DNA of 61,906 nucleotides, filler included, from Catajapyx aquilonaris (Eukaryota): the NCBI GenBank assembly GCA_000934665.2. It is 2 parts of 2 records of this genome, joined end to end, with 100 filler letters (N's around TTAATTAATTAA, not from the genome) between each part and the next. Parts side by side here need not be neighbours in the genome. Positions count along the whole stretch, not along the records: positions 30,985 to 61,906 come from JYFJ02004613.1; 1 more part is not named here. One strand, 5' to 3'. This document shows positions 30,885 through 60,300 of the stretch, piece by piece; position 1 is the stretch's first letter; the number at the start of each line of letters is the position of its first letter. The notes below the pieces were generated by a model that saw only the letters and a program-made list of their open reading frames with translations, did no database searches and was not told the origin of the DNA. A program made the translations under genes and the position numbers.

Positions 30885-30984
30885 NNNNNNNNNNNNNNNN
30901 NNNNNNNNNNNNNNNNNNNNNNNNNNNNTTAATTAATTAANNNNNNNNNNNNNNNNNNNNNNNNNNNNNNNNNNNNNNNNNNNN
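30885..30984. other. Assembly gap: 44 N + TTAATTAATTAA linker + 44 N
   Basis: Symmetric N runs around a 12-mer with stops in all six frames; artificial. Confidence 0.95.
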
Positions 30985-31729
30985 AACCCTGCTTAACCCC
31001 AACACTAATGTTAAACCAGTCAGAGAAACCCCCACTAGTTCTAACACAAGCTCTACTCTCTTCATACAATGACTTTACAGCAGCCTCCAACAAGCGGCCC
31101 TTCACTCCATAGAGACTCAGAACTTCCCCCAAACCTTCCCTACTTACTGTGTCATATGCTTTCTCTAAGTCTACAAAGGCAACAAAAACCTTCTTGTTTA
31201 CAGCTAAATACTTTTCTATCACGAGTCTCATACAGAATATCTGATCTACACAACTCTTACCCGACATAAACCCACTCTGAATATTCAGTATTCTCTGACT
31301 TGTGACCCTCTTAACTCTTTCTATCAAAACCTTAGCATACACTTTCCCTGGTACACTTAACAAACTAATGCCACGATAATTCTTGCAGTCACACACATCT
31401 CCCTTACCCTTATACAGAGGTACTATAATAGCATCCCTCCAATCCCTAGGAGCTACACCATTATCAAAAGAAACCCTACATAAATTAGTCAAAAAAGTAA
31501 CTACATCACCCCCGCCACACCTCACAATTTCCGAAGAAATAGCATCAACCCCAGGGGATTTACCTACTTTAAGTCCTAAAGCAGCAGCTGCAACTTCCTT
31601 CTTAACAATATCCCCACAACCATCATTACTTGGTACAACATCCCCAATTAAACTTACAGATACATCAACACTGGCCTTACCACTTGCTGACAGCAAGTCC
31701 TTAAAATACTCTCCCCAGCGCCCTTTCAG
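30985..31729 (-). mobile_element. Non-LTR retrotransposon (RTE-clade LINE) ORF fragment: linker plus N-terminal part of reverse transcriptase; 5'-truncated, 3' end lost in the gap
   Basis: Motifs RWGEYFKDLL, GKSPGVD, PRDWRDAIIVPLYKGKGD, NYRGISLLSVPGKVYAKVL, QSGF, DQIF, FVDLEKAYDTV and VGVKQG, characteristic of RTE-type RT, in an uninterrupted frame. Confidence 0.92.
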
Positions 31730-33192
31730 TTGCTACAACCCTATAATTATCCAAACGGGGTCTTGCATATAGTTTTCAAGTAACAGTCCTGCATACTTCA
31801 CCTATATACATACACTGACATTAGCGCGTGACTCCTGTCCCAACCCAATGCACTCGAGAAGGCCTATATTTGTGTGAACCTATTTCTAATCTATAAACAA
31901 TAACAACATTGTAACCTTCCCTTATTAAAAGTTGCGACCTATATGTATTTTGAAAGAAATCAATTAGGATGTTGAATTAATACTGGTCACTTCATAAGGT
32001 TTCACTTATTTTGAAGCTACAAGTAATTTAAAAGCTTAGAGCTTCCTTGAAATATACCCTATCATATATCATTTTATCAGCTCAAATTCCTATATCTCTC
32101 CTGTTCCAGCTTGTTGATAGAAATATCAAGTGAGTCATTTTATGAGAAGCCATTATTAGTATACTTTTCATTCTCCAATAAAGGATGAGAATTATCTTTT
32201 GTGACTGGAATATCGCTTGCAGATGATGAAATCAAACGTGAATATCAATGCACCTGTTATTGAATCACGTTACCTGCAAGCTATACAGCACAAATATATA
32301 GTTACCGTATATTTTCAAAATCTAGACTCCGGGTCAAATAATGATTTTCTGTCAAAATCACGCTGTATAATATAGGGAGGGTCCAGGCCTTGCTTATACA
32401 ACAATAAAATAAAAAATAGAAACTTGAGCACAAGAACATTCTTACCACCCAATAATGAGTGACGTACCTGAGTGTTGAACTGGAATTGAACAGGATTAAA
32501 CACATCAAGCAATGAAATGTACACTTAAAATCGACCTGAAATCCATCCAGGTCACGCGCCTCTCTCTCAAACGTATTGGCATTACTCTTTGTTGCCAACT
32601 TGAACAATGTGCTTAATGTACGAAAAATGACTATCAGTTTCGAGCGTGGTTTCGAGTACGTATAAAGACTGTAAAAATGTTGGCTATAGTTACAGCCAAC
32701 GTCCGCCTGATTTTCTTTTCTGCCTCACAACAGTTATAGTATTAAGTCTGGCAAAGACGAATCCTAAGTGTATCGTAATTTTCAGCGGTACACTGCAGTA
32801 ATTATGCAATGTCCGCCACCTGATATGAACCTACTATTAAATCGCTGGGGTCTTTTTCCGTGGTTTCATCCTACGATATCGTCGGTAGAATAAGCTCAAG
32901 TGGTCCGCAAAAGATTCGGGTTTAAAAGGCCAACCTGGGCAGCAATGGTCGGGGTCATCGTACAGCACCTTTGAATCCACCCTCGCACCGCCGCCTTATA
33001 TCCGGATGACCTTTTCGAACCCTTTCTCACCTTCAACCTTCGAAGCATCGATAATCATGCAGCACGATGATGTGACCATGTGGCTTAATGGCACGTGAGG
33101 TGCATAGGCGCACGTGACACTGTACAAGCCGTCACATCATGACCACATGATTAGAATAATGTAGTCTTCCGTCCAGCGGTGGCAGTGCGGTA

Positions 33193-43224: not shown

Positions 43225-44990
<1,766 letters not shown>

Positions 44991-46500: not shown

Positions 46501-47100
46501 CACTCACGGCCGGACTTCATTTGAATTTTATGCTTTTGCCATTTTATGTGCCAAATAGCCTCACAACAATGCCCATTTTCTGATCGATTATACTGTGCGT
46601 TTATAGTGACAGCTGCAGTCAAGCGCTGTTCACGGCCATATTTGTTTAAGTCAGATTTGGGCGCCGCATGGTCAGTAGTTGGTCAGTTTGCCCGCCAGGT
46701 AGAGCGCGCATCGGCGAAAATCATTAGCTGCACGCATGCGCACTCAAGCCAGCGCAAACATGGCCCAAAAAAACATGCCGGTCCGGCACGGTCCGGTAGG
46801 AAGAAAAGAAAAGCCGTAATGAAATAGTCATGGTTGCATATGTGATTCCTGGAACCATGGTGGACGTCGGGCGTCACCAGTCGTCACGGTGACCACATGA
46901 TTGGGCAAAAGTGCGTCACAAGCACAAGGAAGGAGAATCGATGTGCCGCCCTAGTATCGATACTCTGTGGGCATGGTGGGGAGTATATCGATATATATTC
47001 CCAAGTACATTTCATTGATTGGGAGGACACGTGCCAAATTACCAGAGAGAAAAAAAGAGACATAAAAAATGCAGCAGCAAAAAGAAGACGAGAGATGAAT
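46500..47100. promoter_or_regulatory. Bidirectional promoter region between PRMT1 (-) and the TRPA gene (+) with two DRE (TATCGATA) elements
   Basis: TATCGATA at 46955-46962 and 46986-46993, each within a 12-bp palindrome; head-to-head gene arrangement. Confidence 0.6.
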
Positions 47101-47278
47101 CCATAGGAACGAGGCGGGGTCTTCTCCCAGGGAGGGAGGGAGGGTGAGTCGCCGGCGATGGAAGCCCTGCTGGGAATAATGCCCAGGAGTGGACGATGAC
47201 CATCATACTTGACTCAACTTGATCATTTGCAGGGTTGTTGCTTATTGGAGGAACTACAACGACAACAACTGCTGAAGG

Positions 47279-50200
47279 ATGGGAGCGGCAGCCTCTGCTT
47301 CGTACATTCCGGAGAAGGACTCTGGGCAGCAGCAAGGAGGCGAGGACGACGACGAAGATGCAGTTCCGCTCCAGGACGTGAGGGCACAGAATGTCATGCG
47401 GGCTGTCAGCACGGTAACTTTTATTAAACTTCTCTCTGACTCTGTGGACATTCTGGTGACAAAAGTCAACAAAACATGGCATAAAACATATAGCATTGGC
47501 GCTATGCTGCACTCATTCGAAAAAAAAACTCAAGCAGGAGTTTGTTAATTAAGAGTTGCAGACAAGCAGCTGTGTAACCATATCTTGACAGTTGTTGCTG
47601 AGGCTGTCTTTGGTGGGAAGTGTGCAATTAGCGCAAGCAACTGTCATATGTTCCAGATGAGGATGTGCACATGTGACGTCACATTGAAATGGTCTCATTT
47701 ATGCAGCCTTGCCTCACAGAAATTACTGGCCATGTGAAGGACTATTTCCTCTAATAATTAGAGGCTGCCATAAAGTAGTCTACACATCATTGAGATCTTG
47801 CATCAGGCATTGTCATTGAGATCTCAAGTAGAAAAGGTAACAGGGTAGAACAAGAGAGAGGCTAGGTAGAACAAGATGCATATGAGTGTTTAAAAAAAAT
47901 GCTAATAGGAATGGTATTCAAATTTAATATGGCAAACTGTCTTGCCATTGTGGGGCAATGGCATTATTTAAAAAGCTAAAAAAGTCACTTTGACTGTTAC
48001 ATTACTCATAACTAGATGAAAGAGATGCTGCACATGGCGGGAGAACTCCACAGTAAATTTTCCGTAACGATCCTTCAAAGTGAGTCATGGATTCACAATA
48101 TTTTGTGAACAGAATTACGTATTTTAAAAATAATATATTATCTACCTGTCACAAAGCAGGACAGTCAAATTCCTTCTTTGACCTCTAGCTGTTTGGATGG
48201 TTTCGTGGTGGGGAGAGGTAAACCGGAGTAAATTTTTCCTGAGTTAATTTGCATTAAACCTAAGAGTTGCGTGTATTATTGCAGGTTCTGGATGAGGTCC
48301 TCCGCTGCAGCTCTGAGGGTGACTCGTCCCAGCTGGCTCAGATCCTGGATGACCTGGGCCCGGGAGAGTGCACCGTCCGCCTCCCAACCCTGTGTGATGC
48401 AGAGGGGCAGACTGCCCTCCACCTGGCCACCTTGGAAGGTCACCCTGAATGCGTCACAGTCCTTCTCGACAAAGGGGACAGCCAGCAGGTCGGAGTGACT
48501 GACTCGCAGGGAATGACAGCGCTGCACTTGGCTGCCAGGCAGGGACATGCTCACATCCTCGCAATGCTGCTGCAGCAAAAGGTACTGATGCTTTTATGAC
48601 ATGTTCCGTGGACATTGGACGTGACTAATCGTACTTCTTATTTTATAAAGCCATCTGCGGAGGTATTGGCCATGCGCGCAGGGGAATCTGGCAACACAGC
48701 CCTTCATGAGTGCGTGGAGGGAGGCCATGTTGAGTGTGTCCGCCTTCTGGTCCAGGCTGGCTCGCAGTGGTGGTGGCGTAACAAGAAGGGATGCACCGCT
48801 GTCCACTTGGCTGCCTGGTGGGGTCATCTTGAACTCCTGTCGCACTTCATGAAAGAAGGAGGTACGCATAGCTGGAATGTGGGGCGAGGTAAGCATAGCA
48901 GGGAAGTGATGGCATTTCCTTCTTCTGCAATTAAGACGGAGACAGGGTTGTGGACCCAGAGGACCCTGACCACCAAGGGAAGACCCTGGTCCATCTGGCA
49001 GCGGAGTTTGATCATCCCGAGGTCCTTCGCTGGCTGTTTGGGGAGCACCTGAGCTGCCAGGTGCAGCCGACGGATGCAGATGGGGAGACACCCATGCATC
49101 TGGCTGCAAGAAACAACAACCTGCTGATTGCATCCATATTAGTCGACTCAGGTCATGACCCATACCTCAGGAATCTGGAGGGGAAGCGACCTGTTGACCT
49201 GGCCATGGAGGAGGGCAACACGCAGGTGGAAGAGTGGCTCAGGAGTCCTTTCTCCGATCTTCCAAACAGGGAGAGGTGAGGCTGTTCCTCTCCGCTTCCT
49301 GACCACTTGAATTTGTGGCACAGTCTTTACAGTAATTATGGATTGTTTTGCTGAGCATTTACTGAATTTTCTTTTGGTAGCACTGGCTCAACCCTTGCAG
49401 TGGAATCTGACTTGCCAGTGGATGAACCTGACTCGAGTGACCTTCTGGAACCAATTCAGTCTGGAAACGTTGAGCTTCTGACCTCCCTGCTGGACTCCCT
49501 TTCTTCTGGAGAATCCATCCCGGACTCATGCTTGCACTTGTCCTGCTCACTGGGGCAGGATGGTCCCACGCTGCTGCTGCTGGAGAGAGGGTGCGACCAT
49601 TCAGCGCATCATGGCCCTGACCTTTCAACCCCTGTCCACCAGGCAGCCATTGGTGGGCATGCTTCATGCTTGCAACTGCTTCTGGACAACGGGGCTTCCC
49701 CTGACCTGCGAATGGAGCGTGACCTCACCCCTTTGCACTGTGCAGCCTTACATGGCCATCCTGATTGCCTTCGAGTGCTGCTGTCCTCTGGTGCTGACCC
49801 ATCTGCAATGAATGAGACTGGTGACACACCTTTGCATGTTGCGACCTGGCAGGGACGGCTGGAATGTGTGGCCGTCCTGATTGAGGGTGGAGCCTCACTG
49901 GATGCGTCTAATCGAAGGGGGAGAACAGCACTGCATGAGGCAGCCTGGCAAGGCAATGTTGACCTAACGACCATGCTGGTGCAGGCTGGTGCGTCACTGG
50001 ACGTGCGGGGTGCTTCTGGAGGCACACCTCTTCATGATGCCGTCGAGAATGGCAAGTTGGATGCAGTTGCCATCCTGGTCCGCAGTGGTGCGAGCCTGGC
50101 AGCCAGGAACGGGATGGGACGCACTGCAATGCACCAGGCTGCAGAGTTTGGGCACCTCAACATTTTGCAGGTCAGTAGTCTGCAGTAATCAGTAGGTCAG

Positions 50201-53200
50201 TTGACTTCTCCCTAATTCCCATGTTTCTTAGTGCTAGACCCATGTGACTCAAAAAGTGTGGCAAGTTGCTCTTTTCCTGCTCTGAAATATGAACTGCAAT
50301 ACCTAATGATACGCTGCCAACCAGCCAGCATATAAGAAACACCCTGTAGTCCTATTAGTGATTTGGCTGCCGAGTTCAAAGACCTCCTATATAAAGTAAT
50401 CCTCTGTTTCCCAGGATATCACCTCAGAAGTTTGTTGATGTTATTACGGCGTGCCCTCTATATCGGTCACACTTTTTATTTGTTTCAATATTTACAATTC
50501 CCAGTATTACAGTGATTAACTTGTGCCTCGTGTTAATGCTGCAGTGTTTATGGCAGGAAGGTCATTGAAGGATCCGTAACTGATGGAGCTTCCAAGGTCG
50601 CACTTGTAGTCCTGCACGTGGAAAGGCAACTGACCACAGCGTTCTTTGCGCTTTCATACCAGAATGCAAGGATGCTGATGACCCATCCTGCTACTACTAG
50701 TCCAAAAGGACCGTACAATTTTTCTTTGGTTAGCGGCTTCCCCTCTTCTTCCTCGTCATCACCCATATTGCTGTCAGCTGCGTTGGCTTCAAAATTGTGT
50801 ACAGACTGGAGGAGATTCATGTAACCTTCCATGTCCATGTATTGTTGGAAGAACCCTCCCTCAAACATGTATGACATGCCCTGACTGAAGGCCATGAAGG
50901 ATGGAAAGTCCTTCAGGTATGCTAATCCTGAGTATATGTTGATGGCAACTTCAGTCTTGTCAAAATATTGGATGCGTCCAAGCAGGTCGGTAAACATCAA
51001 CAGCTTAAGCTTCAAGAAGTTTTGCACTCCGAGGCAGGCTGCCTTGGTTTGAGAGCACCTCGTGATGCACTCGTCGTATGTCGAGTACAGCACCATCCTC
51101 TCCTTGATGGTCTGGTGCAGTGGAAGGTCCAAGTCTCGCAGGAACACAGCATATGCAAGTCCGTTGATGTTCTCAGCGCCGATCTCGTACTCCATGTCCA
51201 GCAGTTCAGCGAAGGTCACAGGGAGCACTTCCTTCCTGGGGATGGCCACGAATGAGAAGACTGCCTCCTGGTAGCCGCAGGTGATGACCATGGCCAGGAA
51301 GAGCCAGAAGGCAAGGAAGGTGCGGAATGCATCTCCTGCAGGGACCTCCCGGTTGGGAAGCTGCTCCAGGAAGGACTGGAGGAGGTACTGGCACACGTAG
51401 GCCAGGGGACTGGGGGGCCCTTCCCAGTCAGGGTCGAACAGGGACCTCCTTCTCAGGAGGAGCCAGGCCGAGAGGATGCCGATCGCTGTTCCGAACAGGA
51501 TGCAGAGCCAGACTTGGGCCGAGTAGGGCCAGAATATGGTCTGCCAGGACCAGACCGGGCCAGCATGTGCCCGAGTGAAAGAGAATCCAGTGTAGAAGAA
51601 GGGAAATGCAAAGTTGACATGCGTCATGGAGTCTGCTTGGTAAAGGGCTACTATTGAATCTGCGTGTCCTTTTATAAGTTCACCAATGTATCCCAGCCAT
51701 GTCCCGTTGCTCATCCTGCTCATGTATATTTCCTCTGGAGTGATATCTTTTGGGTATGCTTCCCATCCAAAATTGAAATTTTTACCCAGTTCATGTGCAG
51801 CCATTATGAAGCTTTCCAGTTTCCAAAATCCTTTCTCTTGGATCATTTTCTCCACTCCCTCACTAGTAACCTTCTTAATAAAAGGCATTCTCATGTTCTT
51901 TTTGTTCAAGTTCCATGTCATATCAGGAAAGAGTTTCGTGTTGGGAGGGAGAGGATGAGTTCCCAGGAACATTCGTGTGGGATTGCCATTGTCACAGTAG
52001 AAGCAGATGGTGTACAGTTTTATCGACTGATGGGAAGGTTGAAGTGCAACCTTGAACTTCCATCCCGCGGCAACATCTAGCTGCAAGGCCTGTGGAGATG
52101 GCTCCTGCCTGGTCCACACCACAAAGTAGTCCCGAAAAGCCTGCGCCCTGATGCTGAATGCATGATGCAGACTCAGTCGTCTGAAGCCATCCACCGTGTT
52201 GCTAGTCAAGAAGTGCACCACACAGTCCCCACCCGATGTCTTCTTCCGCTCGTACAAGTCCCACAGCTCCCTCACACTTTGGTGCTTGGGAATCTGGAAG
52301 TGCTCTGGGGCCTGGAATGCCATGGAAAATCTGTCCTCTTCACTTAAATTCCTCAATAGGTGTTGGAAGGGTTCTGGTAACTGAATGAAGTCATGCACAA
52401 GCACTAAACTGCATGTGGGCAGTGCTTGTGCCATAATGTTTGTGAGAAAGTCGGCTGTCAGCTGCACCGAGAGCAGTTCCTGTGACGCACAAAATGAAAT
52501 TAAAATATATGCAAGTGATATGTACTGGAACGCTGCCATGGTGCTGTACACAACTTCTGGCACCGTTATGTGAATCCAGCAAACTGAGTGGTGACGCTTC
52601 CTGCAGTGACCACGTCATGAGTTCCTGAAGGCTAGAATCAAGTGATTTTGGTTGTTCTGGTTGTTTTCGTTATCTCTGCGTCACTGGTAAATTGCAGCCT
52701 AGTGTCAATATTGTCGTAGGTGGCCTGGCTCTCACTGGAGGCAATTTGTGTGGGTAATTTATGAGGAAGATGACCATGAGGATTGTGTAATTGGACATTT
52801 CTGTGGCACAGGAAGAGCCCCTCTGTCATTTCAGAGCTGACAGCTATCTATTTCCCAGCACTTTGGGCTAAATCGGTTGGGCAACTTTCCCAGTTAAACC
52901 GTACAGTTCTCAGGCTAATATTACCAGAACTGGTGGGCTTCTCTGATGCTTTCAGAGATATGGTTGCCTTTGGTGATGGTCTTTCCTGACGCAGTCAATT
53001 TATAAATAATTGATTGTCCCCCAAATGCTGTCATTATGTGCTGACACGGTTTGCTCTGTTCGCGTCGTAGGAGGCAAGGAAGAGGCGGGAACTATTAAAG
53101 GCAAGAAAGTTACGTCTAGGAATAGGGTTTCAATATTGGTTGAAGGATGCGAAAGGTTGACAATGGATCAAATGCCATCTTTGCAAGTAACTTCCAAATA

Positions 53201-56200
53201 AGTAAAGAGATGAATTTATTGCTTTTAGGTTTTAGCCGGTGAGTCTCGAATTAGTCTGGAGGATGCTGATGACCTGGGATCAACGCCCCTTCACCTGTCG
53301 TGTCAGAGAGGTCACCTGCGGGTGGCCAGGCAGCTGCTGGAGTGGGGCTGCAGGGTGGGGCCAAGGGACTGCCGCGCCTCAACTCCTCTTCACCTGGCTT
53401 CCATGGGGGGTCATCAGGAGGTTGCCGACTTGCTTCTGGGGGCAAGGGCTGACCCAGCGGCCAGGGACCAGGTTGGGAAAAGGCCGTGCGACCTTGCGCA
53501 AGAGCAAGGTAACATGCAACGGATTTCTTTCCTCTTCTTCATTATGTGGTCGCACCACAGGCAGAAGTTGAGATGCAAAATGTGAGTTGAATTGTAATTG
53601 TTACTGTTCTAGGTTGGGTTGGACTTGCAAGGAGTTTGGCAAAAGGAGTTGGAGGGAACATCGCAAAATCAGATGAAGGGGATGAGGGATCAATCCTCCA
53701 GCTCCATGCGGCAGTAAAGGAGGGGAAGGTTGGGGCCGTCAGGAGGCTGCTGGAGGAAGGGGAGGACCTCAACGAGCAGGATGCCAGTGGGAACTGTGCA
53801 CTCCATCTGGCAGCACTCTTCGGACACAGGCAAATGGTAACTAGAGAACATGGCAGGCTTACTATCTGATTGATTGACAGTGTGGTTGAGATGGAAGGAG
53901 TCCCTTCAGGATGAATGGCAGTGACAGAAATCAGTCCACATAACTAACGCACTTATGTTTTATTCAGGTGTTTCACCTCCTTCGGTGTGGGGCCAACCAG
54001 ACCTTGCACAACAACTGTGGCAACACTGCTGCCCACCTAGCTGTCCTGCACAACCACCCGTCCATCTTGGGGCTTCTCTCTCGGCACGACCAAAATGCCT
54101 TCCTGTTCCAAGTCAACTCACAGAACGAGGAGGGCTGCACCCCGTTACACTATGCTGTCATGGGATCAACGACACCCGCGTCTGTGTCTGAGCATGACAA
54201 GAAGCCAGCCGCTGCTCCAACCATGCGCAACAATGGTGCTCCAACCGCAATGGAGGCCTTACTGCAGGACAGGCCCAGCAGGGTAAGAATCAATGCTCGC
54301 AATGCTCAGGGTTACACTGCTCTGCACCTTGCTGCATTCAGGAAGGCCAAAAGTGAGGCAGAGATTCTCCTGAAGCACCTGGGTGATCCCCGGTGTATTG
54401 TTGATGGCGACATGACAGAAGAGCTCATAGAAGATGGTATGCCCGTGTTGGTGCCACTAATGGAAGGTCAAAAGGTTAGGCTGGAGGAAGAATACACGCA
54501 AGTTGGAATGCCAGTTGATGCGCTATTCCGGGCCCTGTACAGCGAGCGGGATGACCTCTTTTTGTACCTTCTTTCAAAGGGCATTGTGGTGCCGACAATG
54601 GGCAGGGGCACTGGGGAAAGGGGTCGCCTTGGTAGTCTCAGTGGGTGGAAGGGAAGAGGCAGAGGAAGTGTTGACGGGGTGTTGAGGGCCAGGGGTGGTG
54701 CCAGCTTTGAGATTGTCCAACCCTGGAGTAAAGGGGAGGAGCTGAACCAGAGCGATGGCCGCTACACACTCCTGCAACTGGCCAGCCTGCTGGGGATGGA
54801 CACCTGTGTTGATGCATTGTTGAGAGCAGGTGCTGATCCCAATGGTGTGTCTGAGGTGTGTCCATTGACGCCCCTACTGTTGGCTGCTTCTTGGGGTCAC
54901 CATCGCGTCCTTGCAAGCCTCCAGGGTTGCAGACGCGTCCGCATGCATGAGACCACTGCTACTGGCGAGAACATTCTTCACATATTGGCTAAAGGCATCC
55001 ACAACACAGTCAAGGAGCAGAGCTTTTTCTCACAGTATGACCTTGACCCGGAACGGCAGGACTTTGATGCTAGCATGCAGCAGGTGCTCACTGGACTCGA
55101 GTCGAAAGGAAGTTTCCCGTTTTATGTTAATGACGAGGATGCAGATGGCTGCAGTCCACTTGTGGTGGCAGCTACTCACCGCTCTTCTGCATCTGTGGTC
55201 CACCTCCTGGCCCAAGGAGCTGACCCATGGCAGACTGACCCAACAGGTCGGCAGGCCGTTGACAAGATTCCAGCTCGCACACTCAACACCTACTTGGACA
55301 GGTGCATTCAGTTGTCTGAAAAGAGCCATCATCCACGTGTGCTCGTCAACTTTTCACTGCTGCGTCCCCCAAGTGAAGGTCCTGATGAGTCTCAACGGTT
55401 AGAGCTCTTCCGGACTTCCCACAAGCACCGACAACTTCTGAAACACCCTGTGTTTGCCACGTTCCTTCAGCTGAAATGGTATTGCCTACGCGGCTGCTTT
55501 TGGGCCAATCTTCTCCTGTACCTGGTGTTTGAGGTTGCATGGTCCACCCACGTTGTCTTGCAGCTTAAAGGCTACAACAAAGGTAACCCAGGTGAGACAA
55601 TTGCTTCTGTCTTCACCATTTGCAGCCAAGCTGCCCTTGCTTTTTTGGTCATACGTGAAACATGTCAGTTTTTGGGCGCTCCTAAGCGGTACTTCCTCAG
55701 CCTCGAGAACTGGATGGAATTGGGTATTATTGGTTGTGCAACTACTGATTTTATATTGGACTCGGTTGGGAGTAAAATGGATGACATTGCAGTCATTGGC
55801 CTGTTGTTGAGTTGGGTTGAGCTAGTCCTACTGATTGGTCGCTTCCCAGCTTTAGCCCGCTACATTGAAATGTTCTCCGCTGTTCTTAAGAACTACTTGA
55901 GTTTTCTGGTTGTGTTTGCTGCGTTAATTATTGGGTTTGTCCTGTGTTTTCATCTGACACTTGGACGCACTTGCACAAAGCCAGAAGATCCAGCAGAGCA
56001 ACCTGATTGCTTTTTCAAGTTGCCTGAACTTATTGGCCTGAAGACAACAGTGATGATGATTGGTGAGCTGGAATTCCACGACGCCAACCTGGACACCCCA
56101 ACAACGCGGCTGCTGTACCTCTTGTTCCTCTTCCTTGTCGTCTTGGTACTCATGAATCTCCTGAATGCACTGGCTGTCAGTGACACTCAGGAAATTGCAG

Positions 56201-56823
56201 AACAGGCTGAACTCTACGGGCTTCTCTCTCGCATCGAGCTGGTCTGCTACATCGAGTCTTTCTTCTCGTGGCTGGAACGTTGGCGATTTGGCAGATTCCA
56301 GTGGGGTAAATGGCTGTGGAGAAAATTCAGAGGCGGAGTCCTCCTGTTTCCAAGGCTTCCGAGAGGGACTGTGAGCATTGATCTGTCCAACGGGCGGGTT
56401 GGGGTTGTGGGTGGGAGTGGTAAGTCCACTGTTGAGCTTGGTTGGAGGCTCAGGAAGGAGGTGGTTGAATCCCTGAGGGAGTTGGTGGAGGCGAAGCAGA
56501 AGGAAGAGGAGGAGAGCAAGGAAAAGGGGGGTGCCAGGGAGCTGAGGAGGGAAGTGAAGGCTCTTCAAGAACCAATGCTGGAGCTGCAGGAGGACCTGGA
56601 GGACGGACTGGAGCTCCTGGATCGGAAGCTGGAACAGCTTATGTGTGCCCCCTCATTCCTGAAGGAAGGAGAGATGGGACAGGGAGAGGGGCACTGGGTG
56701 GTTCAGGATTTTGGTCCACGGCTGGACAGGCTGGAAGATCAATTCATGAACCTCAGGAACGACCTGCAGCACCAGCTTGGACTCATGCTGAGTGTTCTGC
56801 AAGCTCTCAAGGATTCTGCCTAA
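47279..56823 (+). CDS. TRPA-family cation channel, Painless-like pore region, with very long ankyrin-repeat N-terminus, ~1710 aa, 8 coding exons
   Basis: Exons 47279-47413, 48285-48581, 48651-48861, 48936-49275, 49381-50170, 53229-53508, 53613-53836 and 53968-56823; all GT-AG and phase-consistent, 5133 nt in total. Many TPLH/TALH ankyrin repeats, pre-S1 LLKHPV..FLQLKW, six hydrophobic segments, pore KTTVMMIGELEF, S6/TRP-like LMNLLNALAVSDTQEI..QAEL (recalled Painless signature LNGLAVSDTQ...AEL) and a C-terminal coiled coil. An in-frame TGA at 47273 precedes the ATG. Confidence 0.88.
50548..52539 (-). CDS. Divergent ionotropic receptor (IR, variant iGluR), intronless, ~663 aa, nested antisense in the TRPA intron
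   Basis: Single ORF from accATGG with a signal-peptide-like N-terminus; S1 NGTWLGYIGEL..GHAD; M1 WPYSAQVWLCIL; M3 RTFLAFWLFLAMVITCGYQEAVFSFVAIP; last TM PLTKEKLYGPFGLVVAGWVISILAFWYE; AATAAA at 50475-50480 (-). Confidence 0.9.
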   Translation of the reverse strand: MAAFQYISLAYILISFCASQELLSVQLTADFLTNIMAQALPTCSLVLVHDFIQLPEPFQHLLRNLSEEDRFSMAFQAPEHFQIPKHQSVRELWDLYERKKTSGGDCVVHFLTSNTVDGFRRLSLHHAFSIRAQAFRDYFVVWTRQEPSPQALQLDVAAGWKFKVALQPSHQSIKLYTICFYCDNGNPTRMFLGTHPLPPNTKLFPDMTWNLNKKNMRMPFIKKVTSEGVEKMIQEKGFWKLESFIMAAHELGKNFNFGWEAYPKDITPEEIYMSRMSNGTWLGYIGELIKGHADSIVALYQADSMTHVNFAFPFFYTGFSFTRAHAGPVWSWQTIFWPYSAQVWLCILFGTAIGILSAWLLLRRRSLFDPDWEGPPSPLAYVCQYLLQSFLEQLPNREVPAGDAFRTFLAFWLFLAMVITCGYQEAVFSFVAIPRKEVLPVTFAELLDMEYEIGAENINGLAYAVFLRDLDLPLHQTIKERMVLYSTYDECITRCSQTKAACLGVQNFLKLKLLMFTDLLGRIQYFDKTEVAINIYSGLAYLKDFPSFMAFSQGMSYMFEGGFFQQYMDMEGYMNLLQSVHNFEANAADSNMGDDEEEEGKPLTKEKLYGPFGLVVAGWVISILAFWYESAKNAVVSCLSTCRTTSATLEAPSVTDPSMTFLP

Positions 56824-57351
56824 TTAGGTACTCGTGGATGAAGTTGTAGATTATTCTACAGGGCCAGTCAGAATGCCTCAAAAGTTTCTTAAAAACTGAC
56901 ATCTACTTTGGCTTCTTTTTTTTTGCAGTATTGCGTTGTATAAACCCAGAGATTTTATTACAGTGATGTCGGCTGTGTAGAATTGTTTTTACTTGTTTTC
57001 CTATAGAGGAAACTTGACTCATTCGCATACCAGAGAGGAAGGATTATTCTCATATTATTAAGACGCAGGAAAGATTCTCCATGTGAAAGTTGAATTCGAA
57101 TGGCTCGAATTTTTCCTGCCCCTCTCTCTTCATTCCTAATCATTTCTGTGATTCCAGTTTTGAAAGTTCCACTACAATAATATTAAGTGCCCAGTAAGAG
57201 CCATAATTATATGGCAACTAGGTTAAGATATTGGCGTGTGTCATTATAAACAAATGTGTGAGAGTGTGTTTTAGTGTGTGTTAATGTCACACAACTGTGA
57301 ATTCAGAAGGGGTGTAGTTCGGTAGTATTTTGCAACAATTCTACATCAAAT

Positions 57352-57357
57352 AATAAA
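57352..57357 (+). terminator. Candidate polyadenylation signal (AATAAA) of the TRPA gene
   Basis: AATAAA ~530 nt after the stop, followed by T-rich sequence. Confidence 0.4.
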
Positions 57358-60300
57358 CCTATCTTTTTACTGACTTAGACATTCCAGCATTGTACTGTAC
57401 CTGCGCATTAGCAGTAGTACCTTATCAAGTAATGCAAGCTAATGAAAATCTTTGCTGCCAATTTACTTACATTTTATATGCAACTGAAGTGGTTCAAACC
57501 TGTTGAGAAAACCCAAAGAAAATTGCATGTTACTGATTTTGTTATTCGCGAAACAATATTTGCTCCTAGTGGTGTTGTTGACATAAATTATGTTACTGTC
57601 CGTATGACACTCAAAAAGTATTCTCACTGATGTCACTCTTCATGTTGTAACGATGAGTGCCTTTTTCTGTGGGATACTGCAAATGCCCAGTTAAGAAGTA
57701 CACCGGTGCTGATGCATCTCTGATGCAGTAATACTACGTATAGGTATAGTAAAGACAAATGGCTACATGAGCATGGAGCCAGGCTCTGGTTGATGTTCCA
57801 ACCCATGAGTTTCACTTAAGTGTTGTACTGTTTGTTTCATGTGTACTATAATTGCTTTAATTTCTGTACCTGATGTTTTGTTTATTAGATACTATTACTC
57901 TTGCGAGCAGTGTAATACAATATGCTGCACTAGAGAGTCAGAGGGGTGTACATTTTTGGTTATATTACATCTGCCTGGTATTGTAGTGGTACATTGTAGA
58001 TACTCCAGCCACAAGTGTTGAAGTCAGGTTTCTGAAAGGCCTGCAGGACCAATGTTTTCGAGAGGGACAGGTGAATGTAAATCTCACAGACCTCCGCATG
58101 AGGCCTCTGTCCCCAGACTTGATTGATAATGCAATTCCATTTATCAGGCCCATGCATGCACAGACTTCTCACTGTGCGTTGCATTCCAATGATTTTGTGC
58201 CACAGCCACGAGTCAGATGCTCAGTGCAGATGCATTCCAGTGGGTTCTCTTGGGGGGAGTCAAGTCAAGGAATGCATAGCCTGTACCAAACATTTGTAAT
58301 ATTTGTTATCTTGCAGTCAGTATGACATGCTGATGACAGTTGCCATTATACAAATGATTTGCCAAAATGAAGTGTGCCACTAATAGTGTATATCATCTAA
58401 AATTGTGCTGGTGTCTGTTATGACATAATTGATATTCGCTCTAAGCAGTAACAATTCTGCTTTGCCACAGTTACTTATGTAGAAGTAAATAGCAGGGAGT
58501 TGTGTGAACATTATTTTACAATACCTTTTGGTCGTAAGATGATGTTTTGTGCCAGGATGGGATGAGTTTCAAATTCCTAGGTGTTTACAACAGTTAAAAC
58601 ATAATGTGCCATACTTTCATGAGAATACTAAAAATATATAATTATTAAAGATACCAGTTCAGAGTACATGCATCTGGATGCGTAACTTTTTTAAACTCAC
58701 TTGCAGCTCAGATTATACTAGCATGTTTACAGATCGGGGAAATATTTTCTGTAATCATTGACGTATATTTTAGAAAGCTAGGAGGTCAGGAGAAAGTGTC
58801 AAGATGCACACTGTGGGTTGTAAGTTGCAAGCCCTTTGCACCTACCACATATGTCAATAAAAAAATTGCACTGCTAACTGCTCTGAGAACATGCCACTTT
58901 GTGCATATAGATCTGGGGTTGGTGCAATGGGAATGCAACTTGCACAGGGCGTCTGCTCTACTGCCCTTAATTCCATTGCATCTGCGCAAATATTGTCGTC
59001 CATGTGTAACGTTTCATGTTGAGTGGGGCAATAATGAGGAATATTTTTATATTTGATTTAGCTTCTTTCTTCACATGTTGCTTGTTCAGCCTCAGTTGTA
59101 CGTTGCAGTGGAACTCTGAAGTGCTATTTATATTGCAGTACACGCCTTACTCAGTCACTTAAACGATGAATGCAATAGTTAAAATAGTATTTTATGAGTA
59201 AGTTTGAGAGACTTGTAATATGGATTACGAAAAGGGTGCAGGTGTCGACTTGAATGGCCCGTGTCTCTCTTATTATGTGATGCAAGTTGGGGGAGATTCA
59301 AATAATTGCCAAACTCCCAAAATGTCAATTTTTGTGGAGGAAAAAAACTAAAAGTTATCTGGGGGGGGGGGGNGGGACAGCATTGTGATGTAGGGGAGAC
59401 TGGGGCACAGTGGTCCTGTAATCCATTTAAAAAATCATAAAGTAATCCATTCCTAAATAATATTCCTACTGTTCATTCCCGAAGAACAATTATTATTCAA
59501 GTGTTGTTTCACCCAACGCCACAGACAATAATAATGACAAATAAATGATAATATGAATTATGCCAAGTGTGTTCTCCTTCACTGATTCCCATGACAAAAC
59601 ATAAAAAATGAAAGCTCTTATTTCCTTTCACTTTCTGTTGCTCCCATGGTCCCAGTGCTGTACCGTGCGCCATAAACTACACGTCAGATTAATGGGCCTA
59701 AGCTGACAAGGAAAGGTCGCAGCATGTAAATAATGGAGTTGCTTAATGAAACTTGGCACTATAATAGAGGCTGCAGGCAAAGCTATTTTGGTCTGGGTTG
59801 TTCCATGGTTCCCAATATATTTTCTGGCTCACTGGTAAAGTGGCAGTTTGGTGTGGAAATATCATTTTAAGTGACCTTGCATAATTATGGAGCCCTGCCT
59901 TTCTGGAAATATATTGGCTAAAATGTCAGGAGGATTGACCGTGGAGAGGGTGGAAATAGAGATCAAATTGGCTCATTTTTATTATCGGTGGTCGCTTTCG
60001 CATTGATCCAGTGCTCCTTTTCTTCTTTCGTAAGGCATTTGTGGAGCAACATTTCCTGCCAAGCGTACAGTGCTCAGGCTGTCATTACCATAATTGAGCA
60101 GTTTTGGTGGGCTCCCCAGGTTTTCAGAGATATCGTTGCCTAGGTGACACTATGATTTGACAAGTGATATAAGTACAAAAGTGTCACAAAATTACTTATG
60201 CAATTTCAAATGGTTATAAACAGATGACAGATGCATACATAAAACTTCTGGAACGTACATTTCAACATACTTTTTTTTTTTTCTTCGCAAGTGTTTAATT

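Follow-up and report, generated by a model that had tools for sequence, protein, structure and literature searches.

The DNA analysed here, hereafter the window, is a stretch of 61,906 nucleotides from Catajapyx aquilonaris (assembly GCA_000934665.2), in which positions 30,985 to 61,906 come from JYFJ02004613.1; all coordinates count along the whole stretch. Its plus strand carries a gene for a predicted ion channel of the TRPA type, with ankyrin repeats encoded on both sides of a 3058-bp intron (50171..53228). On the minus strand, the same intron holds an open reading frame (ORF) of 663 amino acids (50548..52539) that belongs to the ionotropic glutamate receptor (iGluR) superfamily and looks like a divergent ionotropic receptor (IR). 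We regard it as probable that the IR gene is nested antisense within the intron of the TRPA-type host, with host splicing over the IR predicted from the splice sites, the intron phase, and the register of the ankyrin repeats.

A single-exon ionotropic receptor on the minus strand

The ORF listing places the IR coding sequence in one exon at 50548..52539 on the minus strand, where 663 codons are followed by a TAA stop with no intron between. Translation would begin at the first ATG past an in-frame stop, in the context CACCATGG, and the stop-to-stop frame extends over 50548..52614. At the local base composition, a run of 663 stop-free codons has a chance probability of about 1.5e-15. A candidate poly-A signal, AATAAA, lies at 50475..50480 on the same strand, about 68 nt 3' of the stop; from there as far as host exon 5, the strand has no other AWTAAA. 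The signal lends weak support, as the hexamer was counted 116 times on the two strands of the window. The ORF leaves 377 bp and 689 bp of the host intron on its two sides. The longer flank (52540..53228) runs from the IR start codon to host exon 6 and would hold the 5' untranslated region (UTR) and the promoter of the IR, if that promoter is intronic. These measurements bear out the first-pass annotation of this DNA, which had described an intact 663-residue IR ORF on the opposite strand, mostly filling the intron, with a poly-A signal of its own and about 690 bp before exon 6. No second IR copy was found when the window was searched with the IR protein by tblastn, the remaining matches having E values of at least 2.9.

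To place the protein in a family, we rely mainly on an exhaustive phmmer search of a library of 1.84 billion representative sequences at a threshold of E ≤ 1e-3. The IR retrieved 750 matches, including 190 at E ≤ 1e-10 and 11 at E ≤ 1e-30. Identity to the library matches is 20 to 32%, and the best match (7.6e-51) is a springtail protein that is 26% identical; no orthologue was recognised among the matches in this library. The top matches are proteins of the springtail Orchesella dallaii and unnamed proteins of 620 to 710 residues, with identities of 23 to 31%. Among ten of the top matches, four O. dallaii proteins bear the name "ionotropic glutamate receptor C-terminal domain-containing", another is called just "hypothetical protein", and five are unnamed. 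The best relatives include O. dallaii CAL8072510.1, CAL8110958.1, and CAL8097689.1 (P0005, P0006, and P0015; E 7.6e-51 to 3.9e-32), which have the Lig_chan domain and an IR-like length in common with the IR but are only 24 to 26% identical to it. The O. dallaii entries of 1,200 to 1,300 residues each align to the IR twice, as would be expected if two neighbouring gene models had been fused.

A search of the PDB recovered 196 iGluR-type sequences at E ≤ 1, the best at 1.2e-7, with similarity running from the S1 segment to transmembrane helix M3. The bit scores are about 30 against these PDB chains and 120 to 190 against the IR-like proteins of 600 to 700 residues, and an Atlas feature search with the IR led to arthropod IR clusters with a score of 0.98. 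Membership in the IR clade is presumed from these score differences and from the Atlas clusters named IR. Two results count against the assignment. The IR falls under the Pfam cut-offs for both Lig_chan-Glu_bd (PF10613; 20.1 versus 30 bits) and Lig_chan (PF00060; 16.4 versus 30.8 bits), and a word-index homologue search gave no match at E ≤ 1e-3. The latter has been superseded by the exhaustive phmmer search, and the former reflects divergence rather than absence of the domain, because Lig_chan is above threshold in nine of the nine top relatives scanned.

The predicted structure points in the same direction. An AlphaFold2 model built from a 53-sequence alignment has a mean predicted local distance difference test score (pLDDT) of 82.5 and a predicted template modelling score (pTM) of 0.71. 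When it was compared with the PDB by Foldseek, at least 500 matches were returned at E ≤ 0.001, and among the matches listed all belong to the iGluR family (AMPA, delta, kainate, and NMDA types); the best of those listed are full-length GluA2, GluD2, GluK2, and NMDA subunits, with E values down to 1e-21 and a probability of 1.00. The model, the Foldseek alignments, and the hydropathy profile together describe a two-lobed ligand-binding domain that is split by M1, a re-entrant pore helix, and M3, and is followed by M4. The hydropathy peaks fall at residues 343, 404, and 608. The channel core (51244..51519) consists of M1 at residues 341 to 368, the pore helix at 378 to 390, and M3 at 403 to 432, as placed by the model helices, the hydropathy peaks, and the conserved Trp344, Trp412, and Tyr423. 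M4 begins at about residue 605 (50650..50727), according to hydropathy and the AlphaFold2 model. At the other end of the protein, the hydropathy scan picks out a hydrophobic stretch at residues 1 to 19 (52483..52539), directly behind the start codon, which is probably a signal peptide. S1 similarity begins at about residue 250 in the IR versus about 450 to 500 in the matched solved iGluR chains; the N terminus before S1 is thus short and lacks a full amino-terminal domain.

The IR also retains most of the residues that its relatives share. In the 53-sequence alignment, 14 of the 16 invariant or nearly invariant columns are kept, the exceptions being G273M and R304S. The residues through which iGluRs contact glutamate are an Arg in S1 and a Thr and an Asp or Glu in S2. 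Column 304 is Arg in 48 of the 53 relatives and Ser in the IR; judging by the motif behind it, which aligns with the iGluR stretch "R..V.F..PF", we take this position to be the S1 arginine that binds the ligand carboxylate. One glutamate-contacting residue would thus be lost, as judged from the alignment and the position within S1. With serine in place of the arginine that grips the carboxylate, an alpha-amino acid is an unlikely ligand.

Collectively, these results establish the ORF as a member of the iGluR superfamily, and they uphold the earlier description of an intact, intronless, divergent gene of the ionotropic-receptor type through the phmmer matches, the relatives with Lig_chan, the AlphaFold2 fold, and the Foldseek alignments. 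The ORF further looks like a tuning, or divergent, IR, since it is short, occupies a single exon, lacks a full amino-terminal domain, and has a degenerate ligand pocket. Tuning IRs are expressed in sensory neurons and depend on a co-receptor, IR25a, IR8a, or IR76b; the divergent ("tuning") IRs of arthropods were reportedly described by Benton et al. in 2009. By analogy with characterised insect IRs, the protein would be expected to pair with a co-receptor subunit and to act in sensory dendrites as part of a ligand-gated cation channel. We accordingly picture a working-looking single-exon tuning IR, i.e., a variant iGluR subunit, in which a likely signal peptide and a reduced N-terminal domain come first, the two lobes of the ligand-binding domain lie on either side of M1, pore, and M3, and M4 closes the chain. 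The likeness to the divergent IRs of other arthropods (PMC2924276) extends to the single exon, the length of about 650 residues, the missing full amino-terminal domain, the order of S1, M1, pore, M3, S2, and M4, the very high sequence divergence, and the loss of a glutamate-contacting residue, here the S1 Arg replaced by Ser304. The present IR differs from them in that its best match is only 26% identical and it misses the Pfam thresholds.

The TRPA-type host gene and its probable continuity across the intron

The host gene is modelled, provisionally, with seven exons and an open frame of 1666 amino acids, in which 18 ankyrin anchors were counted. The exon before the IR intron (49381..50170, plus strand) encodes ankyrin repeats, with a Pfam Ank_2 match of E 9.7e-41 on its 3' part. 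Behind the intron follow an ankyrin-coding exon at 53229..53508, whose frame opens exactly at the acceptor, a further ankyrin exon, exon 7, at 53613..53836, and the last exon at 53968..56823, which combines ankyrin repeats with a six-helix channel domain (Pfam Ion_trans, 5.3e-12). The IR intron, number 5 in the first-pass annotation, had been described there as by far the largest of the gene, with most others under 140 bp; this is confirmed by lengths of 3058 bp versus 69, 74, 105, 104, and 131 bp for the remaining introns of the provisional model, while the model is uncertain about a first intron, which would measure about 0.9 kb. The exon before it may be the one noted at 47279-47413 on the plus strand, a candidate for the first coding exon that begins with MGAAAS, a possible N-myristoylation-type start; how it is spliced to the next exon over these 0.9 kb or so is ambiguous.

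Transcript evidence comes from run X5, which we infer to be spliced RNA from a GT..AG joint. One X5 contig covers 53718-53835 in exon 7 and splices on to 53967, so that the 131-bp intron at 53837-53967 is skipped between GT and AG. It follows that the host is transcribed and this intron removed, and it is the sole intron with such backing.

The identity of the channel was judged from its repeats and its nearest relatives. The host has N-terminal ankyrin repeats by Pfam Ank and an Ion_trans channel nearest to TRPA members. Of the 12 PDB matches of the channel part, eight are TRPA1, with 7ykr the best at E 1.2e-15, whereas weaker scores go to the remaining TRPV or OSM-9-like entries; the other TRPA1 entries and TRPV3 match at about 1e-5. 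The library relatives of the channel are 28 to 40% identical and about 950 residues long (946 to 956), and one is labelled painless-like. The Atlas search with the channel part returned mixed TRP, YVC1, and PKD clusters without a subfamily call, and a homologue search for a long-ankyrin TRP yielded four matches that were ankyrin-repeat noise only. We therefore assign the host to the TRPA type with fair confidence, as a prediction from its domains. Like painless, pyrexia, and TRPA1, it pairs N-terminal ankyrin repeats with a six-helix channel, and its best solved match is TRPA1, but it differs in its 1666 residues and 18 ankyrin anchors compared with relatives of about 950 residues.

Continuity of the host across the IR decides whether the IR is truly nested. 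The intron is bounded by a consensus donor, CAG|GTCAGT at 50170/50171, and by the acceptor TTTTAG|GTT at 53228/53229, and its phase is 0 on both sides. The spacing of the ankyrin anchors is 33 residues five times in succession, 34 over the IR intron, and 33 again, such that the repeat register is carried exactly over the junction. Moreover, exon 6 encodes ankyrin sequence from its first codon, right behind the strong acceptor, and its first Met comes only in the middle of a repeat. On the plus strand, the 1.7 kb from 50189 to 51876 contain no AWTAAA at which a distinct gene upstream might terminate. DNA contigs of X1–X3 join exon 5 to the IR (47000-51141) and the IR to exons 6–8 (51544-57500). 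With both junctions bridged by these contigs, nothing obvious marks the layout as a misjoin; they may come from the sample that was the source of the assembly and so are possibly not independent of it.

Several observations speak against a continuous host. The nearest TRP homologues are colinear with the last exon alone; P0161, for instance, aligns over its residues 78 to 815 to 54178-56328. A length of 1666 residues, with many ankyrin repeats beyond those of the relatives, is unusual for such a host, and the exons upstream may be part of a different gene. No X5 contig joins exon 5 to exon 6, and the X5 contigs miss the IR and host exons 1–6 altogether, which makes them uninformative on the expression of these parts. 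On these grounds the exons before 50170 could form a separate ankyrin gene, with the TRPA-type gene starting in an unrecognised short exon within 52540-53228. The IR would then be intergenic and head-to-head with the TRP gene, and the two might use the roughly 690 bp between them as a common bidirectional promoter region. The homologues of 946 to 956 residues, the length of about 1119 residues encoded by exons 6–8 alone as opposed to an unusually long 1666, the missing link between exons 5 and 6 among X5 contigs, and a stop that the frame of exon 5 meets five codons beyond the donor are all in keeping with two genes. Evidence against such an arrangement comes from the repeat register across the junction, the matching phase, the GTCAGT donor, the ankyrin coding of exon 6 from its first codon, and the 1.7 kb without a plus-strand poly-A hexamer past 50188, and we rate it as unlikely. 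The earlier claim that the IR lies antisense within a TRPA gene accordingly stands as far as splice sites, phase, and ankyrin register go; what tempers it is that the homologues map to the last exon only. The span made up of 48285-50170 and 53229-56823 on the plus strand can be described as an unusual long-ankyrin TRPA or as two genes.

Further features were noted around the host. Just beyond its stop, a 2.4-kb X5 contig in minus orientation covers 56920-57500 and could represent a convergent neighbouring transcript or the host 3' UTR. Upstream of the host, a protein arginine methyltransferase gene with at least two exons lies on the minus strand at 43225-44471 (Pfam PRMT_C, 1.5e-44, plus methyltransferase domains). 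Farther away, a reverse-transcriptase ORF fragment on the minus strand at 30985-31732 (RVT_1, E 2.4e-13) adjoins the N runs at 30885-30928 and 30941-30984 and is probably a retroelement remnant.

Origin of the inserted gene and its mosaic pore block

The first-pass annotation had proposed that the IR reached the locus by retroposition. This was not borne out. No A-rich tract was seen after the AATAAA, and a search for flanking target-site duplications or inverted repeats gave only direct repeats of 12 to 21 nt with 76 to 100% identity, which are not at the ends of the gene and resemble chance matches. If the insertion is old, both the poly-A tract and the target-site duplications would have been lost to decay. 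The sole hallmark of a retrogene is the confinement of the coding region to one exon, and this need not indicate a retrocopy because single-exon IRs also spread by duplication at the DNA level (PMC2924276). Croset et al. 2010 (PMC2924276) infer that retroposition occurred once or a few times long ago and that the single-exon IRs then multiplied by DNA-level duplication; they could not identify parent–retrogene pairs. For the present gene, DNA-level duplication or transposition is no less likely than retroposition.

The flanks of just 377 bp and 689 bp suggest that, prior to the arrival of the IR, the host intron resembled the neighbouring introns in being short. In the sequence of events that we envisage, the IR gene would come from an expansion of IRs that is large, evolves fast, and is specific to the lineage; one copy probably landed on the opposite strand of a formerly short intron of the TRPA-type gene and enlarged it to 3.06 kb. 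An analogy, and no more than that, is offered by the dipluran Campodea augens, whose 2,424 IRs are highly divergent and mostly intronless, with many scattered singletons that have moved round the genome (PMC6938034).

Within the IR, the coding sequence is not uniform. The fraction of codons with G or C at the third position (GC3) is 139 of 173 (0.80) in codons 323 to 495, from M1 to the start of S2 (51055..51573), versus 266 of 490 (0.54) outside (Fisher p 7.8e-10), and an unconstrained GC3 scan selects codons 328 to 519. This is not an effect of transmembrane sequence or conservation, since M4 and S1 are also conserved and yet are not GC3-rich. Over 51055-51573 the DNA contigs fragment into short pieces, and side contigs fit for 87 and 36 letters before continuing into unlike sequence. 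Such pieces and side branches suggest short, near-identical stretches common to other loci. The block is probably shared with paralogues or gene-converted, and GC-biased gene conversion among paralogues that keeps it uniform would fit. The summed contig depth at 51212-51562 is 80 to 100 compared with about 32, a value that was not used as a copy number.

Many copies die in large IR expansions, 901 of the 2,424 in C. augens (37%) being pseudogenes (PMC6938034), and an open frame is no proof of function. The IR might then be a young, non-functional duplicate on its way to a pseudogene, open only for lack of time. Hints in this direction are that G273 and the S1 arginine, the latter conserved otherwise, have both been replaced, and that near-identical stretches elsewhere imply recent exchange with paralogues. 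We find this improbable: outside the pore block the contigs showed no branch and no close relative turned up, the best match in the library being 26% identical. In the absence of a close relative outside the block, the bulk of the gene appears to be old and yet open over 663 codons, against a chance of about 1e-15. In addition, 14 of the 16 family-conserved positions are retained and the full-length fold is confidently predicted. The IR is thus better read as an intact tuning IR.

Coincidence or coupling with the TRP gene

We consider it probable that an antisense, nested, single-exon IR in a TRPA-type intron is an ordinary arrangement and that its pairing with a TRP gene is a coincidence. In Drosophila melanogaster, nested structures involve 9.5% of genes, and the opposite strand carries 71% of the nested ones (Lee & Chang 2013, PMC3814207), so antisense nesting is the default arrangement rather than a special one. 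Nested genes of Drosophila are also faster evolving and more narrowly expressed, and the expression and function of nested genes and of the genes that include them correlate less than those of neighbouring pairs and resemble random, non-adjacent pairs (PMC3814207). The present locus is like these opposite-strand cases in that a fast-evolving, probably narrowly expressed gene is contained entirely in a single intron of a longer one. It differs in scale, as the introns of an including gene of Drosophila add up to a median of 12 kb without the nested gene (PMC3814207), whereas the 3.06 kb here are almost filled by the guest, and in that host continuity in the window is a prediction from sequence.

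Could the nesting be functional instead? The first-pass annotation had suggested shared sensory-neuron enhancers, leading to co-expression, or a receptor-choice switch through transcriptional interference. The whole IR unit lies inside the transcribed region of the host on the opposite strand, such that polymerases would collide if both promoters fired in one cell. The IR and TRPA gene families each include sensory receptors as well. Against this, the nested pairs of Drosophila correlate less than neighbours do (PMC3814207), IRs are so numerous and scattered in expanded genomes that a landing in any class of gene is expected (PMC6938034), and among the papers listed by our literature search none describes an IR gene lying inside a TRP gene. 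A functional nesting is hence very improbable to us, and regulatory coupling of the two genes is unsupported and, on base rates, unlikely. A point on the other side is that this estimate is drawn from the base rates of another species and not from this locus. Least probable of all, we judge, is a conserved and mutually exclusive pair of IR and long-ankyrin TRPA, in which convergent transcription of the 3-kb intron would act as a receptor-choice switch and, separately, GC-biased conversion with unlinked paralogues would hold the pore block uniform while the ligand-binding lobes diverge freely.

Were it true, the choice would be hard-wired, and a neuron would express the chemoreceptor or the TRP channel but never both. 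If the pair were conserved and transcription of one gene gated the other, the locus would offer a simple cis-acting choice between two receptor classes in a sensory neuron. On the reading that we prefer, an ordinary nested gene, the finding adds one orphan-like IR and one antisense nested gene pair, both of well-known kinds. Of more use to specialists, perhaps, may be a host whose ankyrin array could be unusually long and a mosaic IR with a GC3-rich pore block that other paralogues appear to share.

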